From a virus (lineage: Duplodnaviria; Caudoviricetes): 39,755 nt of DNA. Position numbers and translations under genes: made by a program. The notes under the pieces are model-generated. The model ran no database searches. It saw only the letters and a program-made list of their open reading frames with translations, and was not told the origin of the DNA. The DNA lies in the IMG/VR virus record IMGVR_UViG_3300032266_000578, positions 1 through 39,755 of that record; one strand, 5' to 3'. Of this stretch, positions 3 to 38,864 are shown piece after piece. The stretch's first letter is position 1. Every line of letters starts with the position of its first letter.

Positions 3-2042
3 AGAAGCATCAGTATGAGGAGGCAGGTTCATGCCTAATTGCTTCTCAATTTCTACTCTGTATCCAAACCCTAGGTGTTCATTAATATGCGCTTGCATTG
101 ATGCTTGCAAAACTTGTGCTTGTGGTGATTGACCTAAGACTTGTAAAACTTTCGGGTCTTGCATTGAAGTGGTATGAACAATAATATGGGCTTCGTGGTC
201 TTGATAAGCAAATGCTTTAACGGGTTTGCCCATTAAAATATTTTGATTTTCTGTTACAGGGTCTTGCGGTTTTTGATCTTCAGACATAGGCACAAGTTTG
301 TGCGCTTCTTTAATACCCAGCACTTCAAGCATTTGACGATGCAACAACGGCATGTTGTAGAACTGAGGGCTTGTCTGTGCCAGTTGTAAAACAGCTTGAT
401 ATTGCACAATCTTCTGTGCCATTGTTGATGCATTTGGGTCTGATACCGGAATGACATCAATATTTTTATAATCAGATTTCTTAGCCTTACGACTACCTTC
501 TTCAGGTTCGTAGTCATAATCACTAGGTGCATTTTCAGCAATAATATTTTTAAGAAGTTTTAACTCTTGTTTTAAAGAGAAATGAATCCTAGCTTGGACT
601 GCGCTCATTACTTTCAGGGTGCGTTCAAGAATTGCTAACGTTGTTCCAACAGGGGCTTGGCTAGACATGTCTGATGTTTGAAGATCAGCGGTGTTAGCAA
701 AACGGCGTCCGTCTTCTACAATCTGACCAAGAAGTGCCATTAACACTTGGCTTGGTTCTTTGTATGGCAGCGGCATGATGTTGTCTTTCATCGTGCCTGA
801 AGCAACATCTACGTCTCTAAATTCACCCGGAGCAATTGGAGTGTCATCTCCTTTAATTCTTAATCCTCTTGTTTTAAAGCCGCCGGGAAGATTAGACAAA
901 GTACCAGCATCAACCAACTGCCGAATAATAGAAGTGCCAGACTTGGCAAAAGCACCGATAAGATGAATAAGCCCAAAACAATAAAAACCAAAGCCCGGTA
1001 TATAGCCATAATGGACAAAGTGCTGGCGCTTAATAAACTTCTTATCTTCTGGTTTCCAATTGCGGCGAATTGATAAAACTTTGCTTGTGCCTTTTTCAAT
1101 AGTGACGACATAAGGCAAAGCTATGCCTGTGGCTTCGCCGTCTTCCTCATGCTCAAAGCCGGGCAGGTCTAGGTCTACATGCATTTCTAAAAGCTTGTAG
1201 CGACTATCGGCTGTGGCTCTAAAACCTAGTTTTTCAGCAATCTTCTTTTCAACTTCGTCTAAACTATTCTCAGGATCGCCTAAATCAATATCTAGATAAA
1301 ACCCAGCCACTTGCAGTTTGCGAAGTTCATTTTCGTTCTTACGCATGACATGGGTTACACGTTCGGCTGATGCTAAGTCAGTAGCTCCGTAAGGCACAAC
1401 TACATCTTCTGCTGGAACAAACAGAGCTACCTGCCTGTTTAAACTGGGGTCTGCATAGACCTTTCGAAAGGCGTTTCCAGAAAGCCCTAAACCCCAGATC
1501 AAACGTTCTGTCTCAGGACGGTACTCTGGCATTTGCTCTGTTAATTGATAGTTCATGTCCTCTTGAACGCGCAACGCAGCTTCTTTTTTTTCCTGCGTTT
1601 CTTTGCCAATAATCTTAGTTTTGACCGGACCAGCAGCAGGAAACAAAGACATTACTGTTTCTGCTTGAAACTTAACTAAAGCTTCTGCCATGAGTGGATG
1701 ATAGATTCCACAAGCACCTTCCCAAGGCTCAGAACGTTCTTCAATCTTTAGCCCAAGAAGTTCTAACCCATCGACATAGGTTTGAATCCAATCTTTTCTT
1801 GAGGCAATGTCATCTTCAAAATCAGAGATTAAATCACTTGCTAGAAGAGATAATGCAGAGTCATCCAGTTCTTCTGCTAGGTTTTTAGAAAAATCATTAT
1901 CTTCAGGAATGATCTCAATTTCCATCCCACCCATATTTACTGTTACTGATTCTGGGTCTTCAATTTCAATTTCAATTGCAGGCTCTTCCATTAATGCTTC
2001 TAAACCAACGGGAGCTTCGTACAATGATTTTTCGATAGCCAT
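3..2042 (-). CDS. Phage portal protein (3' end runs off the window; at least 680 aa)
   Basis: Missing from the ORF track, presumably because no stop lies inside the window. Translating the two ends by hand gives MAIEKSLYEAPVGLEALMEEPAIEIEIEDPESV...SRKDWIQTYVDGLELLGLKIEERSEPWEGACGIYHPLMAEALVKFQAET from ATG at 2042, and YRVEIEKQLGMNLPPHTDAS in the same frame at the edge. It lies directly downstream of TerL and resembles phage portals. Confidence 0.85.
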   Translation of the reverse strand, partial: MAIEKSLYEAPVGLEALMEEPAIEIEIEDPESVTVNMGGMEIEIIPEDNDFSKNLAEELDDSALSLLASDLISDFEDDIASRKDWIQTYVDGLELLGLKIEERSEPWEGACGIYHPLMAEALVKFQAETVMSLFPAAGPVKTKIIGKETQEKKEAALRVQEDMNYQLTEQMPEYRPETERLIWGLGLSGNAFRKVYADPSLNRQVALFVPAEDVVVPYGATDLASAERVTHVMRKNENELRKLQVAGFYLDIDLGDPENSLDEVEKKIAEKLGFRATADSRYKLLEMHVDLDLPGFEHEEDGEATGIALPYVVTIEKGTSKVLSIRRNWKPEDKKFIKRQHFVHYGYIPGFGFYCFGLIHLIGAFAKSGTSIIRQLVDAGTLSNLPGGFKTRGLRIKGDDTPIAPGEFRDVDVASGTMKDNIMPLPYKEPSQVLMALLGQIVEDGRRFANTADLQTSDMSSQAPVGTTLAILERTLKVMSAVQARIHFSLKQELKLLKNIIAENAPSDYDYEPEEGSRKAKKSDYKNIDVIPVSDPNASTMAQKIVQYQAVLQLAQTSPQFYNMPLLHRQMLEVLGIKEAHKLVPMSEDQKPQDPVTENQNILMGKPVKAFAYQDHEAHIIVHTTSMQDPKVLQVLGQSPQAQVLQASMQAHINEHLGFGYRVEIEKQLGMNLPPHTDAS

Positions 2043-2050
2043 AATGTCTC

Positions 2051-3553: not shown

Positions 3554-3587
3554 GCTTTCGCCTTTCCATACACAACTTCGTTGTTTC

Positions 3588-4202: not shown

Positions 4203-4218
4203 ACGCAGGCAAGCTGCC

Positions 4219-4837: not shown

Positions 4838-4838
4838 G

Positions 4839-5011
4839 TTATCCACAAGTTATCCACAATTACCCCTAAACATTCCTGAGATTATTTATCGAGGTAGGTA
4901 AGGGGGTAGTGACCATACCCCCCTTGCGCCGCTCCTAGGGGTGTTTAAACGCGTTTAAACGCTATAACGGTTTTCCTTAGTTGTGGATAACTACCCCTTT
5001 TCTGTGGATAA
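4839..5011. promoter_or_regulatory. Cluster of four perfect DnaA boxes
   Basis: TTATCCACA at 4839-4847 and 4850-4858; the inverse TGTGGATAA at 4982-4990 and 5003-5011. Confidence 0.8.
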
Positions 5012-5246: not shown

Positions 5247-5275
5247 CTTGCACCTTTTGTTTAAACCTGTAGAAT
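5247..5275 (+). promoter_or_regulatory. Early sigma70-type promoter
   Basis: CTTGCA-N17-TAGAAT upstream of the rightward early operon; the same architecture recurs at 15782-15754 on the minus strand. GTTTAAAC lies in the spacer. Confidence 0.6.
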
Positions 5276-6105: not shown

Positions 6106-6188
6106 ATGACCTTGTGAACGGCATTATTGACGTTGCCATTGGCTGCGTCTTCTTTTCTTTTCTTTTCTTTCTGTTGGGGGTTTTATGA
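6102..6188 (+). CDS. Small hydrophobic peptide (28 aa)
   Basis: MNDLVNGIIDVAIGCVFFSFLFFLLGVL; ATGA overlaps at both ends and it fills the gap exactly. Confidence 0.5.
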   Translation: MNDLVNGIIDVAIGCVFFSFLFFLLGVL

Positions 6189-6754
6189 ACACGACACGTG
6201 AGCAGTGGTTAGCTGCTTTGATCGAAGAACTGCGCGGCATTTTTGCGGTACACGGGCATCCGTTGCCTGAGCGTATCCGTCCTACCTGCGGGTTTCCGTC
6301 CTCCAAAGCACGTTCAAAGGACAAGCACATTGGCGAACATTGGTCACCCGCTGCGAGTGATGATGACACGCATGAGGTGTCTGTTTCCCCTGTAGTCAGT
6401 GACCCGTACGAGGTCGCAGGTATCCTGACGCACGAGTTGTGCCATGCCGCGACCAACGGTGACGGGCATCGGGGCAGGTTTCCTGATCTAGCCCGTAAGT
6501 TGTGGCTAGAGGGCATTCCGACTCATGCCTGTGCGGGGGATGCATTCCGGCTGCACTTTAAGGAAATTGTCGAGTCCTTGGGCGAGTATCCTCACGCCGC
6601 TCTGAACGTTGGCAGAGTGCTTACCCCGCAAAGTACCCGTATGTTGAAAGCGTCTTGCCACTGTGGTTACACCGTGCGCCTGACCAAGAAGTGGGCTGAT
6701 GCGGGTTTGCCCTGCTGCCCGTTGCATCACCTTGACCGTCTTACCCTTTCCTGA
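6185..6754 (+). CDS. SprT-like zinc metallopeptidase with C-terminal Zn ribbon
   Basis: HExxH (LTHELCHAA), downstream GH..F, and a C-terminal CHCGY...CCPLH. Confidence 0.75.
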   Translation: MNTTREQWLAALIEELRGIFAVHGHPLPERIRPTCGFPSSKARSKDKHIGEHWSPAASDDDTHEVSVSPVVSDPYEVAGILTHELCHAATNGDGHRGRFPDLARKLWLEGIPTHACAGDAFRLHFKEIVESLGEYPHAALNVGRVLTPQSTRMLKASCHCGYTVRLTKKWADAGLPCCPLHHLDRLTLS

Positions 6755-6791: not shown

Positions 6792-8186
6792 ATGAACAAA
6801 GAACTCGCACTACTCCCGCTTGCCCGTTTAAACGCTGCTTTGGTTGCCCTTGGCATTGAGCGTGTCACTGACAAGGCTGCTGCCATCCCCGTCCTGTCAG
6901 ACGCCATTGACCGTGGGTTGATCACCCTTGCCGCGATCAAGTCATCTACTCCCCCTGCTCCCGCCCCTGCTCCAGAGGGCGAGATTCTATCCTCTGACTT
7001 CATTACCCTGCGATCTGAACTGCGATTAGGTCTCGACTTACTGAAAAGTAAAGTAGATGCTGACCGCGCCAACGCGAGTCGTGACCTTGCGATCCTGTCT
7101 GCCGAACTGCGGGATGCCGCACCTGTAGACGTCACCGCCTCTGTGCGTGATGCTGTTGCTGAAATCCTCGCGCCGTTCAAAGCCACTGCGACCCCTGCGA
7201 CACTGGCTGCTGTTGCGGCGTCTGCTCCTGCGGGGCGTGTCAGGGCTGACAAGCTGTTCGACACCACTTGCTACACGGCTGACGGTGAGTTAGTCAATTT
7301 CGGTAGCTTGGAGGTTTCTGTCTGGGGTGATGCTGATGCCCCTACCCGTCTGGATGACTATGTCTTTGACGCCCGTTATCTGCATGAGGCACTGACCGCC
7401 ATTGGTCAAAAGCTGCCCCTGAACTGTTGGTTAGCAGGGGAACGTGGCACGGGGAAAACAGAGTTTGTCACCCAATTAGCTGCGCGGCTTGGTCGCAAGT
7501 TGTACCGTATCAACTTCGACGAGGCTATCGAGCGCCTCGATTTTATCGGCGGCAACATTGTCGAAGAGGGGTCTGTAGTCTGGAAGGCAGGGGTACTGGC
7601 TCAGGCTATGCAACACGCAGGGGCGCTGATTCTGCTAGACGAGATCAGCTTTGCACGGGCGCAGTCTATTGCGGTCTTGCAGTCCTTGTGTGAACCCTCT
7701 GTGCATAGGGGCGTGATGATCAATGAAACGGGCATCAAAATACCCGTGCATCCCTCTGTCGCGTTCTTCGTTGCAGACAACACGAACGGGTACGGTGATG
7801 CGTCAGGCAATTTCACTGGTACACGCGATCAGAACAGCGCATTTATTGATCGCTTTTCGTACACCTTTGAGTTTAACTATCTGCCCCCTGCTGACGAAGC
7901 AAAATTGATTTCAGACCGCACTGGCTTGAACGCTGATGCGGCGCGTGTCATTGTGAAGTTTGCGGGTGTTGCCCGTGAAAAGAGCAAGGCAGGGATGCTC
8001 ACTCAGCCGCCCTCACTGCGTCAGTTGTTTGCATGGGCGAATGCGGTGCGTGACGGTATCCCTGTCAAAAACGCTTTCGAGTCTTCTGTCGTTCGTAAGT
8101 ACCCCGCTGACTGCTCTGCCGAGTTGCTCGCTGTTTTCACTGCAACCGTTGACGTTGTGAAATTCAAATCATTTTTAAGGAAATAA
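6792..8186 (+). CDS. MoxR-family AAA+ ATPase (CobS/CbbQ/NorQ-like)
   Basis: Walker A GERGTGKT, Walker B ILLDEI, sensor ADNTNG, AFIDRF arginine finger, PSLRQL; followed by vWA partner genes. Confidence 0.9.
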   Translation: MNKELALLPLARLNAALVALGIERVTDKAAAIPVLSDAIDRGLITLAAIKSSTPPAPAPAPEGEILSSDFITLRSELRLGLDLLKSKVDADRANASRDLAILSAELRDAAPVDVTASVRDAVAEILAPFKATATPATLAAVAASAPAGRVRADKLFDTTCYTADGELVNFGSLEVSVWGDADAPTRLDDYVFDARYLHEALTAIGQKLPLNCWLAGERGTGKTEFVTQLAARLGRKLYRINFDEAIERLDFIGGNIVEEGSVVWKAGVLAQAMQHAGALILLDEISFARAQSIAVLQSLCEPSVHRGVMINETGIKIPVHPSVAFFVADNTNGYGDASGNFTGTRDQNSAFIDRFSYTFEFNYLPPADEAKLISDRTGLNADAARVIVKFAGVAREKSKAGMLTQPPSLRQLFAWANAVRDGIPVKNAFESSVVRKYPADCSAELLAVFTATVDVVKFKSFLRK

Positions 8187-8187
8187 T

Positions 8188-9282
8188 ATGAAAGGGTTTA
8201 TCGCTAAGGCGGCTCTGACCGCCCTGTTGGAAAAGGTCTGGTTGTCTTCGGGCAATGCCATCAACAAACTCGAAGTCAAGTTTGCCGGACGCACTGCGGG
8301 TATCCGCTTCAACCGTGATGACGGTCTGTCTGCTACCGTCATCCTCCCTGCCATTGACGAGGTCGCTGAGGTTACTCAGGGCTTCTTTAATGACCTGATC
8401 GGATACGTCCTGCACGAGCTTGGTCATGCATGGTTCACTGACAACGCACCTTGGGATGACGCTGTTGCCGCGCATGGCAAGGTTCTGGGCGGTATCGTCA
8501 ACGCACTGGAGGACGTTCGCGAAGAAGACGCAGTCATTCGCTCAGGCTATGCAGACAACGCACGGGCGCTGTTCGTGCAGCTTTGCAACAACGTGTTCAA
8601 GGACGGGTTCGACAACACGATGATTGAGAACGTGGCGGCGGTGATCGCAGTCGAAGGTCGCCGTTTAAACGACTATGCCCTGACCGTACCTGACCTGTTC
8701 TCTGGGTGTCCGTGGGCAGAGGAAATTGCAGACGCACTGTCTGATGCGCGGTTTGCAAAAACCACCGCTGACGTTGTCACTGTCGCTGTTGCCTTGTGGC
8801 TCAAAATAAAGCCTGAAGAAGAGGGCAGTGACGAGGAGGGCGAAAAGCCTCACGGCAACCCCAAGCCGGATGACGAGGGCGACGAAAGTGATCAGCCTGA
8901 TGGTGACAAACCCACTGACAAACCCACTGACAAACCCACTGACAAACCCTCAGACGAGCCTGACGAAAAGCCAGAGGGTGACGAGGGCGAAGAGGGTGAG
9001 GGCAAAGACGGCAAAGACGGTGACAAGCCTGACGGTGACAAGCCCTCCGACAAGCCCTCCGACAAGCCCAGTGACAAGCCCTCAGATAAGACTGACGAGG
9101 ATGGCGATAAGCCGAAAGGCAAACCGCAGCCACGGGGTGCGGGGGGTTCGGGTGAGGGCGCTATCCAAAACATCGAAGCGGGTAACTTGATCGAGGCGCA
9201 AGCCCGTGACGCATCACCCGCTCATGTCTTCAAGCTCCCGCTCCGCACTAAAACTATTGTTGGCAAATTTGACTGGAGGTAA
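8188..9282 (+). CDS. CobT N-terminal-like metallopeptidase-fold protein with acidic repeat tail
   Basis: GYVLHELGHAWFT...VNALEDVREE (HExxH plus NxxED), then a D/E/K/P/G-rich low-complexity tail. Confidence 0.8.
   Translation: MKGFIAKAALTALLEKVWLSSGNAINKLEVKFAGRTAGIRFNRDDGLSATVILPAIDEVAEVTQGFFNDLIGYVLHELGHAWFTDNAPWDDAVAAHGKVLGGIVNALEDVREEDAVIRSGYADNARALFVQLCNNVFKDGFDNTMIENVAAVIAVEGRRLNDYALTVPDLFSGCPWAEEIADALSDARFAKTTADVVTVAVALWLKIKPEEEGSDEEGEKPHGNPKPDDEGDESDQPDGDKPTDKPTDKPTDKPSDEPDEKPEGDEGEEGEGKDGKDGDKPDGDKPSDKPSDKPSDKPSDKTDEDGDKPKGKPQPRGAGGSGEGAIQNIEAGNLIEAQARDASPAHVFKLPLRTKTIVGKFDWR
8905..9090 (+). repeat. 12-bp coding tandem repeats (DKPT/DKPS), two blocks
   Basis: GACAAACCCACT x3 plus a variant from 8905; GACAAGCCCTCC x2 plus two variants from 9037. 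Confidence 0.9.
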
Positions 9283-9284
9283 TT

Positions 9285-10112
9285 ATGTCCTATGTACAAG
9301 AGCTTTATTCGCGCATGAAATTTACCGCGAACCGCGAACGCTGCCGCGAATTTTTTGAGGAGCAGATGACCTCTCCTCCCAAAGCGGTTGGTGCTACCCG
9401 TGCAGCGCTGTCGCAGATGCTGCGCTCCATCGACCTAGTCGGTTGGAGTCGCAACGAGGAGTCAGGACGCCTTGATCGCAAAGCGTTCACCCGTCTGGCT
9501 GCGGGTGCTACAACCGTGTTCTCGCGCCGTGATATGAAGTCAGCCGACAAGTCGGCGGTCACCATCTTAGTTGACTGCTCCGGTTCTATGTCGGGCGAGG
9601 TCATGGCGATCACTGCTCAGGTATCGATTCAGCTTGCCAAGATGCTAGAACAAGCGCGGGTCAACACGGCGGTGATCGGCTTCACTGGCTCTGAGCCTGA
9701 TGACTGGAAAGACGACGACACGAAAACCGACGAGCAGGTGCTAGTCACCGTGCCGTTTAAAAATCGTGGCGAGTCTCTCCGTGCTGCTGCTGAGAAGATG
9801 GGCGCTATTCGCGACTGTGCGTCATCCGGTAACCCTGACTATGCCGCCCTGATGTACGCCATCGAAGAGATCGCCACGCAGCCTGAACAGCGCAAGGTGA
9901 TCTTCTTTCTGACCGACACGGGGTCGTATGACCGCGCTCACATGAAACAGGCGCAGCTTTTTGCTGACCGTTTGGGCGTGACGCTTATTGCAATTGGTAT
10001 CGGGGCGCGTGTTGAGAAGCTGTTTAAACACGGTGCTGACGTTTACAACCTGTCTGACCTTGGCGGCAAGACATTCACCGCTTTACTGCGCACCCTGCGG
10101 TCTAAAGATTAA
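9285..10112 (+). CDS. von Willebrand factor A domain protein (CobT C-terminal-like)
   Basis: SGRLDRKAF motif, MIDAS ILVDCSGSM, FFLTD, IAIGIG; own GGAGGT RBS. Confidence 0.9.
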   Translation: MSYVQELYSRMKFTANRERCREFFEEQMTSPPKAVGATRAALSQMLRSIDLVGWSRNEESGRLDRKAFTRLAAGATTVFSRRDMKSADKSAVTILVDCSGSMSGEVMAITAQVSIQLAKMLEQARVNTAVIGFTGSEPDDWKDDDTKTDEQVLVTVPFKNRGESLRAAAEKMGAIRDCASSGNPDYAALMYAIEEIATQPEQRKVIFFLTDTGSYDRAHMKQAQLFADRLGVTLIAIGIGARVEKLFKHGADVYNLSDLGGKTFTALLRTLRSKD

Positions 10113-12429: not shown

Positions 12430-12489
12430 GTTTAAACGTTGAACAATTTAAACCAGCCTAACTCCTGGAAAGATGTTCAACGTTTAAAC
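12430..12489. repeat. Perfect 16-bp inverted repeat with GTTTAAAC at both outer ends
   Basis: GTTTAAACGTTGAACA (12430-12445) and TGTTCAACGTTTAAAC (12474-12489), 28-nt spacer. Confidence 0.9.
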
Positions 12490-12600
12490 GGGCTTTGTTT
12501 GACCCGGGGTGTGGGACTGAAGCCCGGAAGGTATTTATACTCTGTTTAAACATCTTACGGTCTCCGCTGGGAGACCGCTGGGAACTGGTCAGGCAAGTTG

Positions 12601-19171: not shown

Positions 19172-19181
19172 GAGTTTAAAC

Positions 19182-21412: not shown

Positions 21413-21488
21413 ATACATCAAGCGAAGTGATGTGGTGGGTCGCGTATTTTTATTTGGCGCTTGTTTTGATTATATGGATGTGGAAATA

Positions 21489-22376
21489 ATGTTCATCAAA
21501 TATCAACACGTTGAGCGGTACGGCAACACGGAAGTCTCAGGCATTGAGATGGGCGAGTGCTACGTATTCCCAAAGCTCGATGGTACGAACGGCTCTGTGT
21601 GGGCAGAGGGCGGGGTTGTGTGTGCAGGGTCACGCAATCGGGTACTGGCTATTGATGATGACAACGCAGGGTTTTTTGCTGCGATCAGTAACGACCTACG
21701 CATTAGCACCTACCTGATCGAGTTCCCGCATCACACGCTGTACGGTGAGTGGTTAGTGCCTCATTCGCTCAAGACGTACCGCGAGGATGCGTGGCGTAGG
21801 TTTTACATCTTTGATGTGTATGACCGAGCCACAGAGACGCTGCTGCGCTATGAGGACTACCGTGTGCATATGGAACGCCACGGTTTGGATTACCTTGCGC
21901 CACTGGCTATCATCAAAAACGGTTCAGCCGATATGTTTGTGACCATGCTTGAGAAGAACGTACACCTGATTCAAGATGGCATGGGTGCGGGTGAGGGAAT
22001 TGTGTTGAAAAACTACGATTACCTTAACTGTTTCGGTAAACAAATTTGGGCAAAGATTGTCACCAATGAATTTAAAGAAAAGCATCACAAAGAAATGGGT
22101 GCGCCTATCGTTGGGTGCGAGATCATCGAACAGAAGATCACTGACAAGTACGTGACCCAAGCCTTGGTGGATAAGGTGCAAGCAAAGATTGCATTAGAGC
22201 GTGACGGGTGGACTTCACGGTACATCCCACAGCTATTGGGTACGGTGTTCTATGACTTGGTGCGCGAAGATATGTGGGAGATCATTAAGGAACATAAGAA
22301 CCCACGCATCGACTTTCGTGCCTTGCATATGTTTACCGTGGGTCGCATTAAACAACTACGTTCTGATTTATTTTAA
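21489..22376 (+). CDS. ATP-dependent RNA ligase (Rnl2-like nucleotidyltransferase)
   Basis: Motif I KLDGTN, GSRNR, motif III LYGEW, IIIa FYIFDV, IV EGIVLK, V WAKIV; no obvious OB domain. Probable start ATG 21489. Confidence 0.85.
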   Translation: MFIKYQHVERYGNTEVSGIEMGECYVFPKLDGTNGSVWAEGGVVCAGSRNRVLAIDDDNAGFFAAISNDLRISTYLIEFPHHTLYGEWLVPHSLKTYREDAWRRFYIFDVYDRATETLLRYEDYRVHMERHGLDYLAPLAIIKNGSADMFVTMLEKNVHLIQDGMGAGEGIVLKNYDYLNCFGKQIWAKIVTNEFKEKHHKEMGAPIVGCEIIEQKITDKYVTQALVDKVQAKIALERDGWTSRYIPQLLGTVFYDLVREDMWEIIKEHKNPRIDFRALHMFTVGRIKQLRSDLF

Positions 22377-25401: not shown

Positions 25402-25663
25402 GTTAATTCAAAACATGGGGTGTATTGTATGTTTAAACGAAGGGCTGGGTGTCTCACCAAGTGACATACACCATGTTTTAAGAAACAGTAGAAGGATTGA
25501 TGATTTACATACAATCCCTCTCTGCCCTTTGCATCATCGGTCTGGACACAATACAGAAGAATATGTGTCTAGACATCCGTGGAAAACAGAGTTTGAACGC
25601 CGGTACGGAACCGAGATGGAGCTGTACCAGCAGACCAAAGACCGTTTAAACGTTACCGACTAA
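25379..25663 (+). CDS. Ref-like (recombination enhancement) HNH nuclease
   Basis: MGCIVC..IHH..IPLCPLHHR..H..FERRYGTEMEL, similar to the P1 Ref pattern. Confidence 0.75.
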   Translation: MTKKEWFKLIQNMGCIVCLNEGLGVSPSDIHHVLRNSRRIDDLHTIPLCPLHHRSGHNTEEYVSRHPWKTEFERRYGTEMELYQQTKDRLNVTD

Positions 25664-31600: not shown

Positions 31601-34600
31601 TGATTGCCATTGCAATCTTAAAAGCCATCTGTTTGTTTGGGTTTTCTAAAAGCTCAGGATGTTTTAATGCAGCGATTGACATAGTTTTGTCAATTACAGA
31701 GTCGTACCAGTCTAAAGCTTTGCCGCCAGAACGAATTGCAGCCATAGCTTCTGCTGTAATAAGTTTTGCAATAAGTTTTTTGTCTTCTTCTTTATTTTCA
31801 TCCAGAACAGGAACGCCAGATTCCATTCTTCTTTGAACCAAATAATCCAAAACATCTTTCTTAAAACCAATGTCTTGATTTAAAAATGCATCTACTCCAG
31901 TATCTCCTGTTTGCAGTGGCAAAGAAGTAGCTGCAAATTCTGATTCAGTTAATTCCGATTCTTTGGCAGCTTGTTTAATAGTTGCAGAATTGCCTGTCTT
32001 GGTTTTCATTGCATAAGCCGGAGCAGTTCTAGGCTGAACACCCTCACGACCCGCAGTCATCCTGCCGCTTTCAATATTGCTAAAGATACTTTTAGCTAAG
32101 AACAACTGTTCTGCGTCAGTAACTCCGTTGCCCATAAAGAATTCACGGATAGCCGTAAACACATTGTTTAAACGGCGCATTAGGTTGGCAATTAATCCTG
32201 ACGGCGGCTTGGTCTCTGTGTAAAAACGAAAGGCTTGTGCGATAGCTTCTTCAGCCATGTACTCGTCAAAAGTTTGATTGGTGTCACCGTCTTGGTCAAA
32301 CTGTGCTTTGTACTGTGCTTGTAACTCAGGGCTATAGAATTGGTTAATCCATTTCTTCTTAGCCATGTCTGTTAAGACTTTCCACTCCCCATTGGTAAAC
32401 GCACCAAGTTCTTTTAAGGCGTGGATAACTTCATGGCGCATAACACCCATTGGATTGTTTGAATCCAAGGCAAGCGTGATAACGTTTTTAAAATACATGC
32501 CCTCTGCGCCGTTGCTGATAGCATCAACAAGGCGTAGACCCATCTTCTCAAGACCAAAGCGTTTTAAAACCGGCAAAAGTTTTTTTCTCACCTCGTCAGC
32601 CATAGCTTTGGCTTCAGGCGTAGGTGTAGCGTCAGACAAAGAATATTTTGCTATCTCAATTTTGGGAGTATCAGTACGTTGTTGAAACGGAAGTTGTTCG
32701 TATCGACCGTCTTCTGACACCTCAAGCTTACCGGCATACTGAGAGGCTTGTGGAGCGTTACTGCGCTGACCAAACTGTTCGGGTGATGTTCTAGCTGCGG
32801 TTCGTGTTGATGGTGCAACAGGAGCGGTTCTGCCTTCAGGGTTTAAAAATTTGCTTGTAAATTCTGCCGAAGCTTGTTTTGGTGCTGCCTCTGGAACGCC
32901 AAATTGTTCAAAGAATTCAGGACCGTACATCTCTTTAAGATGTTTTCTTTTCTCTTTATCAAACGCAGCCTCTACCTCTAACAAGCGTTTGCTTTTAGTG
33001 TTTAAAGCTACGTCTTTATCTGCCGCAATCTCAGCAACGCTGTCATAGGGTATGCCAAGACCTTGATCCCGAATCATACGGGCTTCTTCAGGCGTAGCTA
33101 CACCGTTGCGGTTAACAATATTTTCTTCAATACTGCGGCGTAACTTTTGGTATGTTTCAACAAAGGGTGCAAGCTCGGCAGAAGGTACATTTGCTAACAA
33201 TTCTTCGCCACGCTTGCCTGCCAAGGTTTTTAAATCTTTCTGAGCAAGATACTCATTGTTCATGTTTTCAGCGTCTGCTGATTCAATGCGTCTCTGAGCC
33301 TCTGCCTGCGACACTACAGGCGTTTCAATTGGCGGGGCAACATAAGGTTGCTCCATCGTGCGTTGTTCGATTGCAAAGCGCCCCCCCATTGTTGGGTGAG
33401 GAACGATGGCAAGACTTGCAGGGTCTTCACCTTTTGCAATAAGGTCTTCTTTAAGCACTGCTAGGCGTTGACGCGCAGCACGAGGAACCATTGGGTTAGG
33501 GTCAATCATGACAGCGCGAGGTGTACCACGCACCTGACCTGTTCCTCCCACTGTAGATGCAGAAGCCTCTAAGCGCCTACGGTCAAATTCAAATGGTTCA
33601 TTCTGTGCTTGTGCTAACTGTTCTGATTGAGCGTCAACAAGTTTTCGACGCTCTTCATTTGGTATTACAGCCGGAGCAGTGTAAGGCACAGATTGTGCGG
33701 GTGACACAGGAAGAGGCTGTCTTTGATCCGTATACCCAAGTTCTTGTGCAGCGCGATCAAAAGCAGCTTGTTGTGCGGCAATACGACCTTCTTCCGTCAT
33801 TCGGGGACGAGGCGTACCAACAGTGTTTAAATCTTGTGTAGCCATCCGCTGGGCTTGTTCCCGGACGCCTTCTGCACCGGGAGTCAGCAAATCAGCCGCA
33901 GTGTAGCCAGACTCAGCGTTTACACCTGTTGCACGGTCAATGCCTTCTTGCGTTGAGTATGCCTGCGGAATTACAGTGGGTGTAAATGGCTCTTGAATCG
34001 GAGGTGCAATTTGTTGGTCAGCAGGTGGTTCGACAACAGGTTGTTCGAGTGTGGCAGTCTGGCGTTTTAAAGCGCCCGTAGCAGCACCCATTCCAAAACC
34101 GGCAGCGCCTTCCATTGTTCCTGCGCTATACACACCACGCATAGTAGGTACGTTATAGCCTTCACGCTGCAAAGCTATGTTCTGAGAAGCTTGTTCTGTG
34201 CCACCTTGCAAGAATTCTGTGCCTGCCTCTGGTAATCCAGTGGCAACAGCCCTTCCTAGGATGCCACGTTGAGCAACTTTTTCGCTAATCTTTTTAGAAA
34301 GTCCGGGGATTAGAGCTTTTTCAATACCTGTTGTTCCTGCAATCCCGCCTAACAACGTGTTGGCTAAAATTAAATCAAGGTTCTTGCCACCGTATTCTTG
34401 CGCCTTTGTAGCAGCTTGTTCAATAAGCTCTTTAGGCAAATTCTCTTTGCTAAGTTCTTCAGTAACGGCGTCATAAATAGAGCTTTTGCCTGTACCTGCG
34501 CCCATTGCTGCGCCAGTTAAAGCACCTGCCGCTCGTGCGCCAATCTTTAAACCCGCACCGGCTAAACCACCAGCAAGCGTTGGAATAACTGTACCAAATG

Positions 34601-35006
34601 CCTGCGCCATTAAATCTACAGGAGCTACTGTAAAGGCGTTTAAACCGGCTTTAATCTGTTCAAGGACGCCTTTATCTTCGGCTTCCTTCATAATTCTGGA
34701 TATTTCTTTCTGATCGTTTTTTGCCTGAGCAGACAACAAATCACCAACGTAGTCTTCTACACCACGCAGGTTTTTAGAAATAGTATTGTTAGCACCAAAA
34801 ACATCAGTCAGCATACGAACACCGCTGACTACACCTTTAGTAACGTTTAAAGGTATGTCAGCAGCTTGACGCAAGGCGCTTTCTTTTTCTGGCTTTTGAT
34901 TTAATTGAGATTGAATTGCAGCATATGCTTGAGCATCAGTTAGTTCTGTTGGTGAATCAACTTCATATGTTCCTTTGCCGGGAACGTCAATCTCATATTT
35001 TGGCAT
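25653..35006 (-). CDS. Giant polyvalent virion/ejection protein (3117 aa)
   Basis: Gly/Ala-rich N-terminus; HExxH peptidase (RHEVIHAL..EEAIA); WYD..GPKIG.FY.NL..VTMDMW..QALIW domain; HYG..GTG..GAE domain; ART-PolyVal-like FKRWFG..YHGT..AIFVT..GFDA..PNQLKSAIGN; C-terminal LPD38-like YKDLPDYVKDGNW..KIPVPFEVG. Confidence 0.85.
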   Translation of the reverse strand: MPKYEIDVPGKGTYEVDSPTELTDAQAYAAIQSQLNQKPEKESALRQAADIPLNVTKGVVSGVRMLTDVFGANNTISKNLRGVEDYVGDLLSAQAKNDQKEISRIMKEAEDKGVLEQIKAGLNAFTVAPVDLMAQAFGTVIPTLAGGLAGAGLKIGARAAGALTGAAMGAGTGKSSIYDAVTEELSKENLPKELIEQAATKAQEYGGKNLDLILANTLLGGIAGTTGIEKALIPGLSKKISEKVAQRGILGRAVATGLPEAGTEFLQGGTEQASQNIALQREGYNVPTMRGVYSAGTMEGAAGFGMGAATGALKRQTATLEQPVVEPPADQQIAPPIQEPFTPTVIPQAYSTQEGIDRATGVNAESGYTAADLLTPGAEGVREQAQRMATQDLNTVGTPRPRMTEEGRIAAQQAAFDRAAQELGYTDQRQPLPVSPAQSVPYTAPAVIPNEERRKLVDAQSEQLAQAQNEPFEFDRRRLEASASTVGGTGQVRGTPRAVMIDPNPMVPRAARQRLAVLKEDLIAKGEDPASLAIVPHPTMGGRFAIEQRTMEQPYVAPPIETPVVSQAEAQRRIESADAENMNNEYLAQKDLKTLAGKRGEELLANVPSAELAPFVETYQKLRRSIEENIVNRNGVATPEEARMIRDQGLGIPYDSVAEIAADKDVALNTKSKRLLEVEAAFDKEKRKHLKEMYGPEFFEQFGVPEAAPKQASAEFTSKFLNPEGRTAPVAPSTRTAARTSPEQFGQRSNAPQASQYAGKLEVSEDGRYEQLPFQQRTDTPKIEIAKYSLSDATPTPEAKAMADEVRKKLLPVLKRFGLEKMGLRLVDAISNGAEGMYFKNVITLALDSNNPMGVMRHEVIHALKELGAFTNGEWKVLTDMAKKKWINQFYSPELQAQYKAQFDQDGDTNQTFDEYMAEEAIAQAFRFYTETKPPSGLIANLMRRLNNVFTAIREFFMGNGVTDAEQLFLAKSIFSNIESGRMTAGREGVQPRTAPAYAMKTKTGNSATIKQAAKESELTESEFAATSLPLQTGDTGVDAFLNQDIGFKKDVLDYLVQRRMESGVPVLDENKEEDKKLIAKLITAEAMAAIRSGGKALDWYDSVIDKTMSIAALKHPELLENPNKQMAFKIAMAISSQGMNVEANIKFADYVYEQYQKTGRFPEIGQGKDQGQMVSNYKLANNMLDILGESELRKFLETEYTIGELQAAGLDVGGELADEKVLGSSIFGPKIGFGFYSNLSGNFEPVTMDMWFMRLIGRITGKLKAFEPEKFKNQVLRLRDSFKQTGNNGVYASDFDAQDISDAMQSDEGAIALARKVSSMHEKDFKNNREAFNAKNRIKTELVAAAETIIDSVDASIDAPSNGSQRRNLRDIVAMVRENVAKLYGKDIPPASLQALIWYPEQELYKSLGVALRVTSQDYAGAMAKHLKEEGYDAERISGAAKQGSRAAQRMAGISKRLETQESGRKSGKVSTEEKRQGFLNTIRRKTFIGGETPFNKTETKNKFFNQKDIKSETQVITGEVIPSAVGEMQQVTELNYQQKNKLNNQILNSKFIQDMAKSLGIKSILKITSGTGGYANSISPNLIVQMANSNIYQAEKDARDLSYAMSYVFQQDATPYFRADPNLIKKGQLGYSIQFSDKLKEGQEKKLFKILQNLLGNDVGYSKLNGNELILINYRGEDGKPFLTNDKTFKQKLEAFIVEAEKIASISSKEVFGANSEYNYNDWNEKGTGSAIATGIQVRRGDQPNIQEKLNNFRESFVTIARQAVEESGAKPRFSLRPEQLALRPSDSGGAGISFNDRKEDAVSYAGSHYGKTKTNILSGGYYGTGLKGAEAKRLAQAQDPRIGKRIYFYIPRANGTMPMRESGVGNHVYTQKFDNILGPGKTMSEFYKKAQGDSNAFESFVIDNGYDGYAVPDYGMMVVLNNDIEAKYEGTVGEVHYTKLEGKASLRTPPALLKQTTTDAFKRWFGKSAIVDMNGDPKVMYHGTARDITEFRGKQAGAIFVTPKPLFAEEFTDLSENFMIKESFNSMSEEEKVALLYKALQLATKNKKLSKFEKDNLQAYIKYSADSTFNLIPSTIEEEINQLLKDALPSRANIMPVFVRAEKPFDFQNPDHIDRIVTESKKINGNNQYKGGSYVAQIQNSLEAGNWEDIENKLVQDAIKAAGFDAFYIKENGTKNLAVYDPNQLKSAIGNTGAFSRDTGDIRYSLTNNVPPAVHTKLVPNQSAGQQVTAAATNAIKAVREDGFFTNLRNGFVDDTSSLGHTLAAQGMSQFANNKLRADMLRHTQSNSINIMTVGLQSGVPILNSDGSIVIKRTESNMARSIILADKLDSNPYVKASKLKGGRGFVAEVARALRGADIKQEDAAMNAEGQKLIADADALEVRLNAAVKAGGQDVSAIASAKTKIDQMRKEGKELAGKNREKQVDDAQIQWAEAQLQNVPELKEIFGIWKDINNALTDLSEDTGVISKEQAQKYRDKKFYVPLFKAREDLAEAFFRGSSAKNVAKNYKLEGADIDRNIWENLQKQYAMTIAVAYENQTRKVATEQLQGFGLAKTVDNPNDPNINLRYKEDGKIVNVIAENPNDIAAFQMLNYELGPIMKAISATTKVLRFGALVNPMFWIKQLIRDPIHASLTNNQIVTPFNSLVGFVKVLNKSSASAKILAERGVIGAVDSTVDLNEYIGQLGKEKKTPQMISSALHRVMQIHEASDAATRVAIFDSAKKEALKKGMNEEEAINFAVFRARESINFGVRGNSQALNTLRHSIPFFQAAITSLDTVYRAATGYGLPPAEKRKAQIIFAKRAAVMALMSTLYAAMYTDDDEYKDLPDYVKDGNWLFPTTTPDGRKSFVKIPVPFEVGFLFKTIPEAAWRYYTGTSTGKEVGKSYLEGIVHNLPGGGIPIPQAFKPALESITNHSFFTGNPIEGMSDQGKPVVERGRNASDFAKAASEAGLEKVGLSPAKIDALIKGYFAELGGTFLMVTSDLLGSDKPTKNIEAQLGAKAFMTDPKVSKAVSDFYTLEHNAKEMTNMFASLKKEGLFDRAREYLNDEDKKKQLLAAPVFRRIGEQLGKIKTEIRRVENSGEMSADDKQSRINELQRLLSQTAKKGYEVAERAGISR

Positions 35007-37243
35007 TATTTCACCTTGCGTACAGTAACTCCGCTTGGCGCAGATGTTGCTGAATATTCATAATTGGGCATTGTGTAATCTAGGTCATACAATGATTTTT
35101 GCAAAGCACCCAACCTAGTATGGTATTTTTTTAAATCATTATCTTCTGCTTTTGCTTTGGCTACAGCTTGATTATATTTTTCCATTTGACCCGGTTCAAA
35201 TTGACCAAATGCGTCCATTTTAAACAAGCCTTTAATATTGTCTTCAATTTGTTTTTCACGCCTGCTGATTCCCGCACTAACATTGTCTTCAGTTCTAATC
35301 ATCAACGCTTTATCTTGTTGCGTTAAAGTATCGGCGCGTCCTTCTGCTCTGTCTGCAATAACATCTGCGCGACCCGCAGCGCGATCAGCTAAAGCAGCAC
35401 GTTGATAGTCATCCATGCTTTGATAACGTTGTGCGCTTAACAATCCTTTATTAAGAGCTGCATTCTCAGCAGCACGTTGTTTAGCAGAAGCCCCATAATT
35501 TGCAATCCCAGCAGAAGCGCCCTGACCAATATTAGCCAGTGCATTAGGTGACGTGCCTGCCATCATGCCAAGACCTGCTTGCAGGATAGCCATGTACTTG
35601 TCTTCCTGCTTTTGGCGTTTTAACTCTTCGCGTTGATTCATAATGTCTTCGCGGATTAAATCGTATTCGCTCTTGCGGCGTTCGCCAGCGGGTGGTTTAG
35701 TGGTTGAGCCAGTGGTTAAGCCAGTGGTTGAGCCAGCACTTGCACCATTGTCGGCAGTTGGTGTGGAGTTTGTTTTAAATTTTGGAGCGGGGTAACGCCG
35801 TAACAAACGATCTGCTTCTGTAGTGTCATCCGCAAAAGGTGTGTTTTTAGCAGATGCGCTACCAAGAAAATCCAAAGGACTTTGTGGATTTCCACTTGTC
35901 TCTCCAAGAAAATCAGATGGATGATAATTTTGCACTGAAGGCATAGCTGACGGGGCGTTTGGCGTAAAACCCACTCGACTTACATCTTGTTGCGGGAAAA
36001 AATCTGTTTCTGGCATTCCAATAACTGAAGGCTTAATACTTCTTTGCTGTCTAAATATGCCAGTTGCTGCGCCAGCAGGCGTAATCATTCCGGGAATGTT
36101 TCTTGTGCCGCGCCCAGAGCCTTCCTCTAAATTATCTTTATATGGTTCGTTAGAAGGAGTGGTATCTTCTTCTGAATAAACTTCGCCGGTGTAATTGCCC
36201 ATTGCGTCGTACCCGGGAACGCTGCCTGTTTTTCCACTAAAACTAGGCATCCCACCTTTGTTTAAACGAGCAATTCCACCTTCAGCCAAAGACACTTGAC
36301 CCTCACCCATTTTTTCACGCAATGAACTCATAACCTGACCAACTGTTTTGCCACGCAGATTTGGGTTTTGTTGCATAATAATTGGAACAAATTTTTCGCT
36401 ATTAAACATTCTTAAACCCTGTTCAATAGGCATGTCTGACGTTGCGTTTTTAAGCATAGCTGTTACGCCCGGTCCAAAATAATGAGCGGCATACACCTCA
36501 TCATAGTTTGGATTTCTACCTAGTTGACGTTTTAATGTCTCTGCGTTTTGACGAATAAACTTTCCACCTAAATCTGCATTTTTAACGGGATCAGATTGCT
36601 CCCCGGGCTTGCCACCCATTCCCGCCCAAGTAGACGGAATAAATTGAAATAAGCCCTCTGCACTACTTGCTGAGTTTTTAGCGCGAGGATTGTGACCACT
36701 TTCGCTGCCAGAAATTCGCTGTAATAATTCAGGTGGAAGCCCATATTTATTAGCAGCTTCATTTACAACACCTCTAATTCCACCCTCTACATTAGGAGTG
36801 CTATTAATGTTTGCAGAAGATGCAACAGGCGCGGCATTTGTTGACGTATTAAGTGCAACGCTTGGTCTTCCACCGCCGTGTTCTGCTGCGTTTAAACGAT
36901 CTTCAATAACTTGTGCATATTCTGCTTCGTCTTGCTGATCTTCATAAGCTTCTTGATCAAAATCTTCAGCATCTCCGCCATCTGCAAAAGACACAATACC
37001 GCCATCATTCATAGACTGAGTCGGAAGATTGCTTGGCATTTGATCAATACCAGAGGCTTCTGCCATAACTTGCTGTGCAATAGGAGGTTCTTGCGGCGCT
37101 TGTACGGGTTGCTTGGCTTGCTTAATTTTTTCTTGCATAAGCGGAATGCCAATATAAGCAGGAACTGTGCCGTTTTTTATAGATTGCTGAAGTTGAGCAA
37201 CACTAAGTTTGCTTGCATCCGCCATTAAGCTAACTGGGTTCAT
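35006..37243 (-). CDS. Virion ejection protein with SLT lytic transglycosylase domain
   Basis: SESG.NP.AKN..SSAEGLFQFIPSTW and YAAHYFG lysozyme-like motifs; coiled-coil C-terminus. Confidence 0.85.
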   Translation of the reverse strand: MNPVSLMADASKLSVAQLQQSIKNGTVPAYIGIPLMQEKIKQAKQPVQAPQEPPIAQQVMAEASGIDQMPSNLPTQSMNDGGIVSFADGGDAEDFDQEAYEDQQDEAEYAQVIEDRLNAAEHGGGRPSVALNTSTNAAPVASSANINSTPNVEGGIRGVVNEAANKYGLPPELLQRISGSESGHNPRAKNSASSAEGLFQFIPSTWAGMGGKPGEQSDPVKNADLGGKFIRQNAETLKRQLGRNPNYDEVYAAHYFGPGVTAMLKNATSDMPIEQGLRMFNSEKFVPIIMQQNPNLRGKTVGQVMSSLREKMGEGQVSLAEGGIARLNKGGMPSFSGKTGSVPGYDAMGNYTGEVYSEEDTTPSNEPYKDNLEEGSGRGTRNIPGMITPAGAATGIFRQQRSIKPSVIGMPETDFFPQQDVSRVGFTPNAPSAMPSVQNYHPSDFLGETSGNPQSPLDFLGSASAKNTPFADDTTEADRLLRRYPAPKFKTNSTPTADNGASAGSTTGLTTGSTTKPPAGERRKSEYDLIREDIMNQREELKRQKQEDKYMAILQAGLGMMAGTSPNALANIGQGASAGIANYGASAKQRAAENAALNKGLLSAQRYQSMDDYQRAALADRAAGRADVIADRAEGRADTLTQQDKALMIRTEDNVSAGISRREKQIEDNIKGLFKMDAFGQFEPGQMEKYNQAVAKAKAEDNDLKKYHTRLGALQKSLYDLDYTMPNYEYSATSAPSGVTVRKVK

Positions 37244-38457
37244 TGGTAGTCCTTCATAGCGTTATAAATGCCAAGGGTATCAAGCCCATCACCTGCAACC
37301 CCACCATCAGCCATGCTCTTTTCTTTAATATGACCGCCACCCGCTTTGGTTGCCATGTTGTACATACCATACGCGCCAATACCAGCCGTGCCTAGACCGG
37401 CGGCTTGAGAGATCATGCTTGGGTTCTGGTACATAGATGTTGACTGTTGAGTCAACGGCAGACCGCGCAACAAGTCAGACATAAAGCCAATTTGTTGATA
37501 CGGGTAGTTAAGCTGCGCTTGATACTGTTGGTATGCAGTATCCAAACCTTTTTGTTGCAATCCTTGCTGTTGTGTACCTGCTGACAACATAGCTTGGTTG
37601 GCTGCTTGCTCTTGCCCAAACTGAGTTTGTCCTAACTGACCTAAAGTGCTTGCAGACGCACCTGCTTGCCCTAATCCTTGCAACCCATACTGACCCGCAC
37701 CCACAGCACCTTGAACGCCTTGTTGCCCTGCTTGTAAGCCTTGAAGCCCAAGATTAGCCCCAAATTGTTGAGCTTGATTAGCTTTATCAAAAGCTGTGCT
37801 GTAGCCCTGTCCAATCATCTGGTTCATGGCAAGGTTTTTATTGCGCTGATTCTCTGCTGCCATTAACGCTTCACGGCTACCACCAAACGCACCTGAGCGC
37901 GAGGCGTTGCCCATCTGCTGAGTGCCAGTAATGTCGTATTGACGTTGCACTTCTTGGAGAGCAGGCTGAAGCGAAGCTTGCAAGTACGGGTTCATGTACG
38001 CTTGAGATGCGTATGGATTAGTTGCTTGCTGTGCGTACTGATCCCCTGCACCCGCTGCCATTGCACCATACCCTAACGATGCATTTTGAAGCTGTGCTGC
38101 TGTGCCTTGCGTACCAAGACCGTATCGACCTGTTTGATATGCTATGTTTGACGCGTCAGCTATCTGAGGAGCTAGTTGCTGATTTCCCACGTTTTTAAAC
38201 GCTTGGTTCTGCATTGGGGTAAATTGTGCAACTTGCTGTCCCTGATACGGCTGATACGGGTTTTGGTTGATATCAGTGACCGCAGCGGCTTTACCTAATG
38301 TGTTTTCCACATAAGGTTTTGCATATTCAGGAATATTAGTGTTTTGAACGGTTGTTGAGGTTGGTTGTGAACTACTTCCTCCACCTTGAGGCATAATTTT
38401 CCCACCGACTTTAAGAAAAGCCCGTTCGGGTAACATATCCAAATGGTTATATCTCAT
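37240..38457 (-). CDS. Gln/Gly/Ala-rich DNA ejection (pilot-type) protein
   Basis: YMNPY, GAFGGSR and low-complexity Q/G/A composition typical of podovirus internal proteins. Confidence 0.7.
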   Translation of the reverse strand: MRYNHLDMLPERAFLKVGGKIMPQGGGSSSQPTSTTVQNTNIPEYAKPYVENTLGKAAAVTDINQNPYQPYQGQQVAQFTPMQNQAFKNVGNQQLAPQIADASNIAYQTGRYGLGTQGTAAQLQNASLGYGAMAAGAGDQYAQQATNPYASQAYMNPYLQASLQPALQEVQRQYDITGTQQMGNASRSGAFGGSREALMAAENQRNKNLAMNQMIGQGYSTAFDKANQAQQFGANLGLQGLQAGQQGVQGAVGAGQYGLQGLGQAGASASTLGQLGQTQFGQEQAANQAMLSAGTQQQGLQQKGLDTAYQQYQAQLNYPYQQIGFMSDLLRGLPLTQQSTSMYQNPSMISQAAGLGTAGIGAYGMYNMATKAGGGHIKEKSMADGGVAGDGLDTLGIYNAMKDYQ

Positions 38458-38864
38458 AGCACAACCTCAACAATTTTGTATTTTTCAACGAACCCAAAGC
38501 GTTGCCATAATCTAGCAACAGCATCATTAACTGCACCTTCTATAGACGTAGCCCCAAAGCCTTGTAAAACTTGGCACATCTGTTTAAACGACTCTTTGCT
38601 GACAATTAACCTACCACCAATGTAAGTAATAAACGCTACACGATGGTTAGGTCGGTTAAACAAATTGACCGTTGCTGCACCAATAATCTTGTCATCTTCT
38701 ACTGCAACCAACAATATCCACTGACCGCTGGTTACATAAGCCTGAACCTGCTCTAACGTATAGTCCTTATCGCCAGTCTGCTGTTCAATTGCTGCTTTTA
38801 AAAACCCCGAAACAGCACCCCAAGTTTGATTGACATACTGTATCGGAACATGCTGTACCTTCAT
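38454..38864 (-). CDS. Virion-module protein with probable GNAT-like fold
   Basis: IIGAATV..AFITYIGG..ARLWQRFGF; sits before the ejection genes, like T7 gp13-type genes. Confidence 0.6.
   Translation of the reverse strand: MKVQHVPIQYVNQTWGAVSGFLKAAIEQQTGDKDYTLEQVQAYVTSGQWILLVAVEDDKIIGAATVNLFNRPNHRVAFITYIGGRLIVSKESFKQMCQVLQGFGATSIEGAVNDAVARLWQRFGFVEKYKIVEVVL

Follow-up and report, generated by a model that had tools for sequence, protein, structure and literature searches.

Introduction

The system analysed here lies in the window, the whole 39,755-nucleotide stretch of a virus of the Caudoviricetes (Duplodnaviria; IMG/VR record IMGVR_UViG_3300032266_000578, a linear record with an estimated completeness of 65%), and combines an array of the octameric palindrome GTTTAAAC with an early gene for a SprT-like zincin carrying a C-terminal zinc ribbon, the SprT-ribbon protein. 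Four described systems come close to it, and their sources were consulted in part. In the cluster A mycobacteriophages, such as L5 and TipsytheTRex, more than 20 operator and stoperator sites are spread genome-wide, some of them in promoters, and belong to one phage protein (PMC9283540); the array of the window resembles these sites in number and spread, and a role in lysogeny is its candidate role as well. The SPRTN/Wss1/SprT proteases (PMC7534798; PDB 6MDX) similarly place a small zinc-binding domain after an HExxH zincin, the order predicted here, and ArdC of plasmid R388 (PMC7213743) joins a DNA-binding domain and a zincin on a mobile element, with a dispensable protease. HIP1, the highly iterated palindrome (PMC6604393), is also an octameric palindrome, occurs about once per 1.1–1.2 kb, lies in coding DNA, and is selected.

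Comparison of the window with other genomes indicates that the ribbon and its basic arm very probably read GTTTAAAC. The explanation that we favour on balance is that the SprT-ribbon protein is an autoregulated genome-wide repressor, with the array as its putative binding sites.

The Site Array and Its Selection

An earlier note on this stretch, made from the sequence alone, had claimed at least 32 exact copies of GTTTAAAC where about one was expected, and 32 are found, about one per 1.2 kb, with the starts listed below.

1437, 3890, 4111, 4224, 4943, 4953, 5259, 6826, 8663, 10022, 11068, 12430, 12482, 12544, 13384, 16143: GTTTAAAC starts, first half
17737, 19174, 19771, 19984, 24443, 25431, 25644, 26291, 27846, 29111, 31154, 32166, 34638, 36260, 36890, 38582: GTTTAAAC starts, second half (the last copy is 38582-38589)

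Markov models of orders 0–2 expect 0.8–1.2 copies, and models of orders 1–6 trained with the sites masked expect 1.0–2.3; unmasked models of order 5 and order 6 expect 11 and 24, and were rejected as circular, since the sub-words come mostly from the copies of the word itself. The flank bias described in the note is likewise present, the consensus of the sites being YGTTTAAACR, with a pyrimidine as the flanking base in 55 of 64 half-sites and 11 of the 32 copies forming the ten-base-pair palindrome CGTTTAAACG. Genes hold 23 of the 32 sites, on both coding strands and in both stop-free frames (x-Leu-Asn, 12; x-Phe-Lys-x, 11), as had been claimed, and 1000 within-gene synonymous shuffles yield only 2.25 ± 1.5 intragenic copies (maximum 9); the excess thus survives both the masked models and the preservation of the encoded proteins. 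The nine intergenic sites compare with 7% non-coding DNA in the window (p = 2.5e-4).

The word is used at 23 of the 32 places where the peptide permits it, and such places themselves outnumber those in shuffled proteins about twofold (17 vs. 8.1 and 15 vs. 5.7); since permitted places are both heavily used and over-abundant, the word bends the protein sequence. Of 91 sites aligned in relatives at 80–90% nucleotide identity (14 loci), 74 are retained where 21.7 would be expected, so positional conservation, a further point of the earlier note, holds at this distance; at 70–80% identity it gives way to turnover, with 45 sites kept, 54 lost, and 62 present in the relative only. The loci compared overlap one another, and these counts are not independent. 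The 32 copies are kept by selection at the DNA level, where the earlier note had placed the signal, even at an amino-acid cost. Most of the 160 loci compared from the same clade are likewise enriched in the word, and some switch to GTGTAAAC, ATTTAAAC, or ATGTAAAC.

Co-Occurrence of the Word and the SprT-Ribbon Gene

The gene that tracks the word was not among the candidates of the earlier note. It and its two functional regions are located as follows.

6185..6754, plus strand: SprT-like zincin with C-terminal zinc ribbon, 189 amino acids, PHROG 6361, third gene of the rightward early operon
6431..6469, plus strand: zincin metal site, H83-E84-x-x-H87 plus H95, intact
6617..6733, plus strand: zinc ribbon, residues ~145-183, with the arm Q149-K155, C158, C160, G161-Y162, R165, W170, and C178

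All 8-mers were counted in the window and in 37 whole or near-whole records, some of them short by up to 6 kb at one end; 15 of the cultured phages and plasmids compared were chosen for having the SprT gene. As the top 8-mer, GTGTAAAC is found in Percival (14 copies vs. 0.3 expected), Reedo (27 vs. 0.8), and Stuff (42 vs. 2.0), while GTTTAAAC takes one of the two top ranks in R5C (17), Mica (7), Venkman (34), and a Magnetospira plasmid (18), and ranks fourth in a Sphingobium plasmid and ninth in Persinger, with 4 copies each. Phages with an altered ribbon arm have no copy of the word (AvGardian, 0; Armstrong, 0), and CN2, which has no ribbon match, has one. AvGardian and Armstrong are Microbacterium phages with the SprT gene, a changed arm, and no GTKTAAAC; Armstrong has another repeated word around CTATTGTA (6 vs. 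0.1 expected). Six terminase relatives (five that are cultured or annotated, and record G015) have neither the SprT gene nor the word. Three records (G011, G026, and G030) have the word without a match to the gene, and are uninformative because their contigs end where the gene lies.

The association was counted in both directions. From gene to word, 117 distinct gene-bearing units were scored after loci below 8 kb had been dropped, most of them from one clade, and the word is enriched (each unit at p < 1e-4 for the best of four words) in 109 of the 111 that have the canonical arm and in 1 of the 6 that do not. From word to gene, viral contigs with two copies no more than 30 bp apart gave 124 loci, and the 59 with a length of 8 kb or more were scored. 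Among these, 10 loci are enriched, of which 7 (6 of 9 contigs) have the ribbon, as against 0 of the 49 others (Fisher p = 2e-6), the three misses being fragments of 10–13 kb and several of the matches being contigs of the same clade. No other gene of the window is common to unrelated word-bearing elements; the SprT-ribbon gene is in all of them. These elements include podo-, sipho-, and myo-type phages, plasmids, and chromosomal elements, and word-bearing phages are found for Actinomycetota as well as for alpha-, beta-, and gammaproteobacteria.

In bacteria, the word follows the element that bears the gene. Five bacterial genomes with the gene contain 7–19 copies of the word per 4–8.4 Mb against 30–82 for a reversed control; the gene sits there on plasmid-like or integrative elements, where the word clusters, and in Novosphingobium 11 of 14 copies are on the single 28-kb contig with the gene. 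Fourteen related alphaproteobacterial loci contain exactly two sites each in up to 20 kb, one 1.1–1.4 kb upstream of the SprT gene and one inside it. These (L498-L514) are copies of a small integrative mobilisable element in Methylocapsa, Methylocella, Mesorhizobium, and metagenome-assembled genomes, at no more than four copies per genome, with genes for an integrase, a toxin–antitoxin pair, a relaxase, MobC, the SprT-ribbon protein, and a coupling protein, and two GTTTAAAC sites each; the annotated copy is that of Methylocapsa (integrase, relaxase, MobC, coupling protein).

Structure of the SprT-Ribbon Protein

The model of the 189-residue protein (predicted local distance difference test, pLDDT, 91) contains only the zincin (~1-143) and the C-terminal ribbon, which is predicted to be of a four-ligand type with a beta-hairpin plus a short helix, and whose basic arm Q149-K155 reads Q-x-T-R-M-L-K. 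The best match of the zincin fold is SPRTN (6mdx_A), at a middling Z of 8.0 with a root-mean-square deviation of 3.1 over 97 aligned residues; selecase (Z 7.5) and abylysin (Z 7.3) tie with it, and Foldseek matches for the SprT fold reach only E 0.017–0.035. In Pfam, the window protein has no match at E 0.01, and PF10263 (SprT-like) is precomputed on 3 of 120 listed homologues. A fold search with the ribbon alone gave nothing clear (best Z 3.4), and the Atlas lead for it is PF17283 at 0.77. Longer fusions bearing the ribbon were not found by a single-query search; in a profile search, the best 120 of 1710 hits are 97–213 amino acids long. Records matching the protein include 164 of cultured phages and 74 of plasmids.

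H87 and H95 are invariant among 114 homologues, and HExxH is conserved by pattern in 99 of the 117 gene-bearing units. It is degenerate in 15 units, which form four groups in a quick tree, about four lineages, all still word-enriched and with the ribbon kept; three further pattern misses were set aside (motif present in the alignment; frameshifted; stand-alone ribbon). Since the protease motif is lost repeatedly and the ribbon and word are kept, binding, not cutting, would be the constant. The stand-alone ribbon is an open reading frame of ~49 amino acids without a zincin (locus L099, 10993-11133, minus strand).

Sites at the Gene and the Proposed Repressor

Of 11 unrelated elements that were scored, 9 have a site in the ~105 bp before the gene, where 0.76 would be expected; ep3 has one too, which makes 10 of 12. 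Several of these sites are in a promoter spacer or at +1; for instance, that of an AT-rich phage locus is inside a TTGACA-17-TATACT promoter. Where there is none upstream, a site is often found inside the gene, as in five alphaproteobacterial plasmids, and 30 hits on the side of the window's clade lie at +390-420 within it. In addition, the arm and the word switch together. Plasmids of Ralstonia, Pseudomonas viciae, and Paraburkholderia carry the arm Q-[TS]-[RK]-R-H-I-K, and in them GTGTACAC makes up 16 of 16 matches to GTKTAMAC, with a copy directly before each gene; six sister plasmids have GTGTACAC in 0 of 26 matches (3/3 vs. 0/6 plasmids, p = 0.012). The sites at the gene's own promoter and the co-switch of arm and word therefore make the SprT-ribbon gene the candidate reader.

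The proposed mechanism starts from the selected word, which accompanies an intact ribbon in phages, plasmids, and integrative elements that are not related to one another. The ribbon and its arm would read it, probably as two ribbons per palindrome, each on a GT(T/G)T half-site. Sites in promoters, including the gene's own, may well be operators that block initiation, and intragenic sites may act, in the manner of mycobacteriophage stoperators, as roadblocks irrespective of orientation; the joint effect would be to damp the element's transcription, perhaps also origin firing, in a lysogenic, carrier, or freshly transferred state. The zincin might serve oligomerisation and, optionally, a self-cleavage switch that lifts repression, in which case lineages without the metal site would be non-inducible; the switch is a guess from SPRTN autocleavage (PMC7534798, in the part consulted).

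It has been reported that the cluster AZ Arthrobacter phages are temperate with an unidentified repressor, and that Liebe, with a one-base insertion in its SprT gene, forms clear plaques and Maureen turbid ones (bioRxiv 10.1101/2025.05.26.655371, consulted in part). The insertion, a frameshift, is visible in the Liebe sequence, and a GTTTACAC site lies directly upstream of the gene. The clear plaques, taken with the sites at and inside the gene, are the reason for favouring an autoregulated repressor.

Several observations weigh against this reading. Binding and repression by the protein are themselves predictions from sequence. Liebe and Maureen differ at three more positions, and the plaque data are second-hand. 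The concentration in control regions that the earlier note had described stands for the individual sites (listed further below) and for the intergenic excess, and fails for start codons, with 6 of 32 window sites no more than 80 bp upstream of one (p = 0.13, no enrichment). In the clade of the window the gene lies inside an operon, and over all units 25 of 114 have a site directly upstream against 19.7 expected, no excess; a strict promoter test in the clade gives 4 of 16 against 2.1 expected. The three GTGTACAC plasmids may be one evolutionary event, the choice between GTTTAAAC and GTGTAAAC tracks guanine–cytosine (GC) content and zincin clade instead of ribbon residues, ep3 is only weakly enriched in GTTTAAAC (4 vs. 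0.7 expected), and the stand-alone ribbon locus has 3 copies of GTTTAAAC in 17.5 kb. Signs of lysogeny are also sparse: among 17 near-complete records of the clade, a tyrosine recombinase occurs in three (G001, G003, and G016; the reader's HExxH is intact in G001 and G003) and a serine recombinase in none, no integrase was detected in Stuff, R5C, or Venkman despite their dense arrays, and roadblocks in the virion genes (9 window sites, 25653-39755) look costly for a lytic phage. Finally, sites are evenly spaced in Percival (p = 0.004) and Stuff (p = 0.008), which fits a coverage function equally well.

As for the residues behind the choice of GTTTAAAC or GTGTAAAC, no ribbon position fits; the top columns are in the zincin and are confounded with clade and GC.

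Alternative Explanations

Because integrases are rare, virion genes hold sites, and spacing is even in two actinophages, a DNA-addressed guard stays a serious rival, possible if rather doubtful. Here, the ribbon would anchor an SPRTN-like protease, or a trap without catalytic activity, along the element's DNA at intervals of about a kilobase. Its task there would be to clear away or obstruct host proteins that settle on incoming DNA, such as restriction or SMC-type defence complexes, xenogeneic silencers, or covalent adducts; the promoter sites would set only the level of the protein itself. It draws on SPRTN, a DNA-dependent protease, being the best fold match, on the conservation of HExxH in most units, on the dense arrays of phages without an integrase match, and on 11 window sites deep inside long genes. 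The window phage also has the gene among its early ones, a plasmid-like contig of Acidisphaera carries it divergently to mobC/relaxase, and the rarity of the word on host chromosomes suits a mark of self. In ArdC, moreover, there is already a zincin that binds DNA and counteracts restriction, its protease being dispensable for this (PMC7213743, in the part consulted). Set against this, the protease motif is lost repeatedly with the array kept, and the clear-plaque frameshift points to lysogeny. Elements with two sites only, one of them in or before the gene, as in some plasmids and integrative elements, also count against a guard because these are too few to shield the element, and even spacing is unsupported as a general rule (24 genomes combined, p = 0.24).

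It is offered as a tentative idea, on the unlikely side, that the protein is a sequence-addressed SPRTN-like protease parked by a ribbon with a retunable arm at an eight-base self address, which phages, plasmids, and integrative elements would write throughout their DNA even where amino acids have to change for it. If true, it would silence the element and strip host defence or silencing proteins from that DNA only, and would amount to a self/non-self mark without base modification, with a compact 45-residue reader of an 8–10-bp word.

A structural coat, in which a nucleoid, partition, packaging, or ejection protein would organise the DNA via dispersed sites with secondary effects on transcription, is improbable. 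The genome-wide dispersion, the tandem pair at the origin-like region of the window, and the parA or rep genes that adjoin the reader gene in several plasmids are in its favour, and opposed to it are the use of the same word across phage types, plasmids, and chromosomal elements with unrelated life cycles, and large site-poor stretches in relatives, such as a 14.7-kb gap in Venkman.

It is very unlikely that the phage mirrors a HIP1-like host-wide word or the site of a host protein or methyltransferase. The density of one per 1.2 kb resembles that of HIP1 (1 per 1131 bp; PMC6604393, in the part consulted), and to this extent, in density and palindromy, the HIP1 analogy of the earlier note is apt; it breaks down in the rarity of the word on the five bacterial chromosomes compared and in its restriction to mobile elements that bear one particular gene. 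Enrichment in candidate hosts, raised in the same note, was not seen in the five gene-carrying genomes, all below the reversed control, the phage's own host being unidentified. The word is moreover spread over phages of Actinomycetota and of three proteobacterial classes, and phages of one host disagree, two Microbacterium foliorum phages being without it and a third with it. The host-wide reading was dropped, the word being scarce on chromosomes and absent from gene-less phages.

That another phage protein reads the word and the SprT gene hitch-hikes is more improbable still. The earlier note had inferred a site for a DNA-binding protein, which is most likely correct, and had named ribbon–helix–helix (RHH), winged helix–turn–helix (wHTH), HNH, GNAT, and polyvalent proteins, which do not hold up; the CobS/VWA pair can be added to these. 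Such genes are widespread in the clade, and CobS-VWA was lost together with SprT in G015, where the primase-to-terS interval is present minus SprT-CobS-VWA. None of these proteins was detected in unrelated word-bearing phages and plasmids, all of which have the SprT-ribbon gene, and the arm–word co-switch and own-promoter sites indicate that gene. Specifically, tblastn found no RHH, wHTH, HNH, GNAT-15040, or polyvalent protein in the 15 cultured phages and plasmids with the SprT gene, and G015 retains the wHTH, HNH, and polyvalent genes without the word.

A by-product of codon use or TTTAAA richness, for which unmasked high-order models (11–24 expected) and 40 TTTAAA copies outside the sites might speak, has next to no probability and is refuted by the masked models (1.0–2.3), the shuffles (2.25 vs. 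23), the use of 23 of 32 permitted places in the window, and the use of only 0–3 of 12–15 such places in five gene-less relatives.

Control-Region Sites and Other Features of the Window

The sites in or near control regions of the window are given below.

4839..5011: origin-like region, tandem sites 4943 and 4953 flanked by DnaA-box matches TTATCCACA (4839, 4850) and TGTGGATAA (4982, 5003)
5248..5275, plus strand: weak promoter-like stretch TTGCAC-16 nt-TAGAAT ahead of the early operon, its spacer holding site 5259, a putative operator
6826..6833: site 72 bp past the stop of the SprT-ribbon gene, at codon 12 of the CobS-like gene
12430..12551: three-site cluster at the convergent junction of the early operon and the primase-helicase gene
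19174..19181: site between a ribosome-binding site (AGGA) and the ATG at 19182

Site 4943 is conserved in 8 of 8 aligned relatives and site 4953 in 4 of 8. The DnaA-box cluster adjoins terS, and similar clusters are found near the early operon in many complete relatives; this suggests host-initiated replication, and one may speculate that DnaA boxes would allow a carrier state without integration. Of the early promoter proposed in the earlier note, the site in the spacer is present and conserved in 3 of 3 aligned relatives; the promoter is a match by eye only, and a consensus scan did not call one there. Many relatives have a site inside the SprT-ribbon gene instead of at the position equivalent to 6826. 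A short direct repeat, CTGACCTGTTCTC, occurs at 4190, 6751, and 8690, one copy lying right at the stop codon of the SprT-ribbon gene. On other elements, the gene is divergent from mobC/relaxase (the Acidisphaera contig) or adjoins parA or rep genes (several plasmids).

The window encodes a portal, a terminase, a primase-helicase, recombination genes, and ejection proteins, including a polyvalent protein of 3117 amino acids; its terminase is closest to those of 023Pt_psg01, DSL-LC04, and pelagiphage HTVC027P (54–58% identity). Neither a DNA polymerase match nor a tyrosine or serine recombinase was detected in the window. Further features are as follows.

6792..10112, plus strand: CobS-like MoxR AAA+, CobT-N-like, and VWA genes, downstream of and co-transcribed with the SprT-ribbon gene
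21405-22376, plus strand: RNA ligase gene and a neighbour of 299 amino acids without a family match, absent by tblastn from 37 compared records
25653-35006, minus strand: polyvalent protein, 3117 amino acids, with ART-PolyVal and LPD38 domains, carrying 6 GTTTAAAC sites

The CobS-CobT-N-VWA genes are possibly accessory, being absent from unrelated word-bearing elements; the CobT-N protein has a long acidic linker of PD/PT repeats. The RNA ligase gene and its neighbour are a probable accessory insertion. Apart from GTTTAAAC, the phage avoids palindromes, with strong restriction-site avoidance: GGCC has 0 copies against ~100 expected, and 24 of 64 six-base palindromes are missing. GGCC counts in related loci range from 0 to more than 160, and may track hosts.

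Comparison with Known Systems

Statements on the published systems in this section refer to the parts of the sources consulted. In SPRTN, the zinc domain binds unpaired bases and DNA junctions (PMC7534798), whereas the putative partner here is a fixed double-stranded word; unlike in SPRTN, the protease motif can be lost. ArdC has a single-stranded DNA-binding domain likened to Rad4 BHD2 and no known site array (PMC7213743), in contrast to the C-terminal zinc ribbon described here. HIP1 is GCGATCGC, with a GATC/CGATCG methylation core, and is over-represented on the cellular chromosome; the window word is GTTTAAAC, no CGATCG occurs anywhere in the window, and the word is confined to mobile elements with its candidate reader in cis.

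For the AZ phages, SprT-like proteases with a predicted SPRTN-like function have been reported (Lizalica gp46, Maureen gp49), and these phages use GTGTAAAC; the main text of that preprint contains TAAAC, GTTTA, and the term operator 0 times and does not name the binding word (bioRxiv 10.1101/2025.05.26.655371). Similarly, the word is not named in the main text, as searched, of another AZ paper and of the Venkman preprint, and among the literature matches listed no paper links the word to a phage protein. The present analysis gives a widespread family of hypothetical proteins a putative binding word and a function that can be tested. For the cluster AZ Arthrobacter phages, it puts forward a specific protein, together with a putative operator, as candidate for their missing immunity repressor. 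It also shows mobile elements iterating a palindrome that is rare on host chromosomes, in an otherwise palindrome-avoiding phage. If the ribbon binds as proposed, it would be a new, small domain for sequence-specific DNA binding, with a switch of specificity that occurs in nature, and SPRTN-type zinc domains would be able to become sequence readers.

The comparison with the cluster A mycobacteriophages (PMC9283540) is the most instructive. Their sites are an asymmetric 13-mer, oriented with transcription and intergenic, whereas those of the window are an 8–10-bp palindrome or near-palindrome, mostly intragenic (23 of 32); even the asymmetric variant GTGTAAAC occurs in both orientations in Stuff (13 vs. 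19). The cluster A repressor consists of a helix–turn–helix and a Stoperator domain, and the protein here of a zincin and a zinc ribbon, which, unlike the cluster A system, is also found on plasmids, on integrative elements, and in phages without an integrase. Repression and superinfection immunity are established for cluster A; the counterpart here is the second-hand difference in plaques between Liebe and Maureen. A repressor of this type, common to unrelated phages and plasmids, is apparently undescribed. The proposed system would work like the cluster A stoperators yet differs from them in both the form of its sites and the make-up of its protein.

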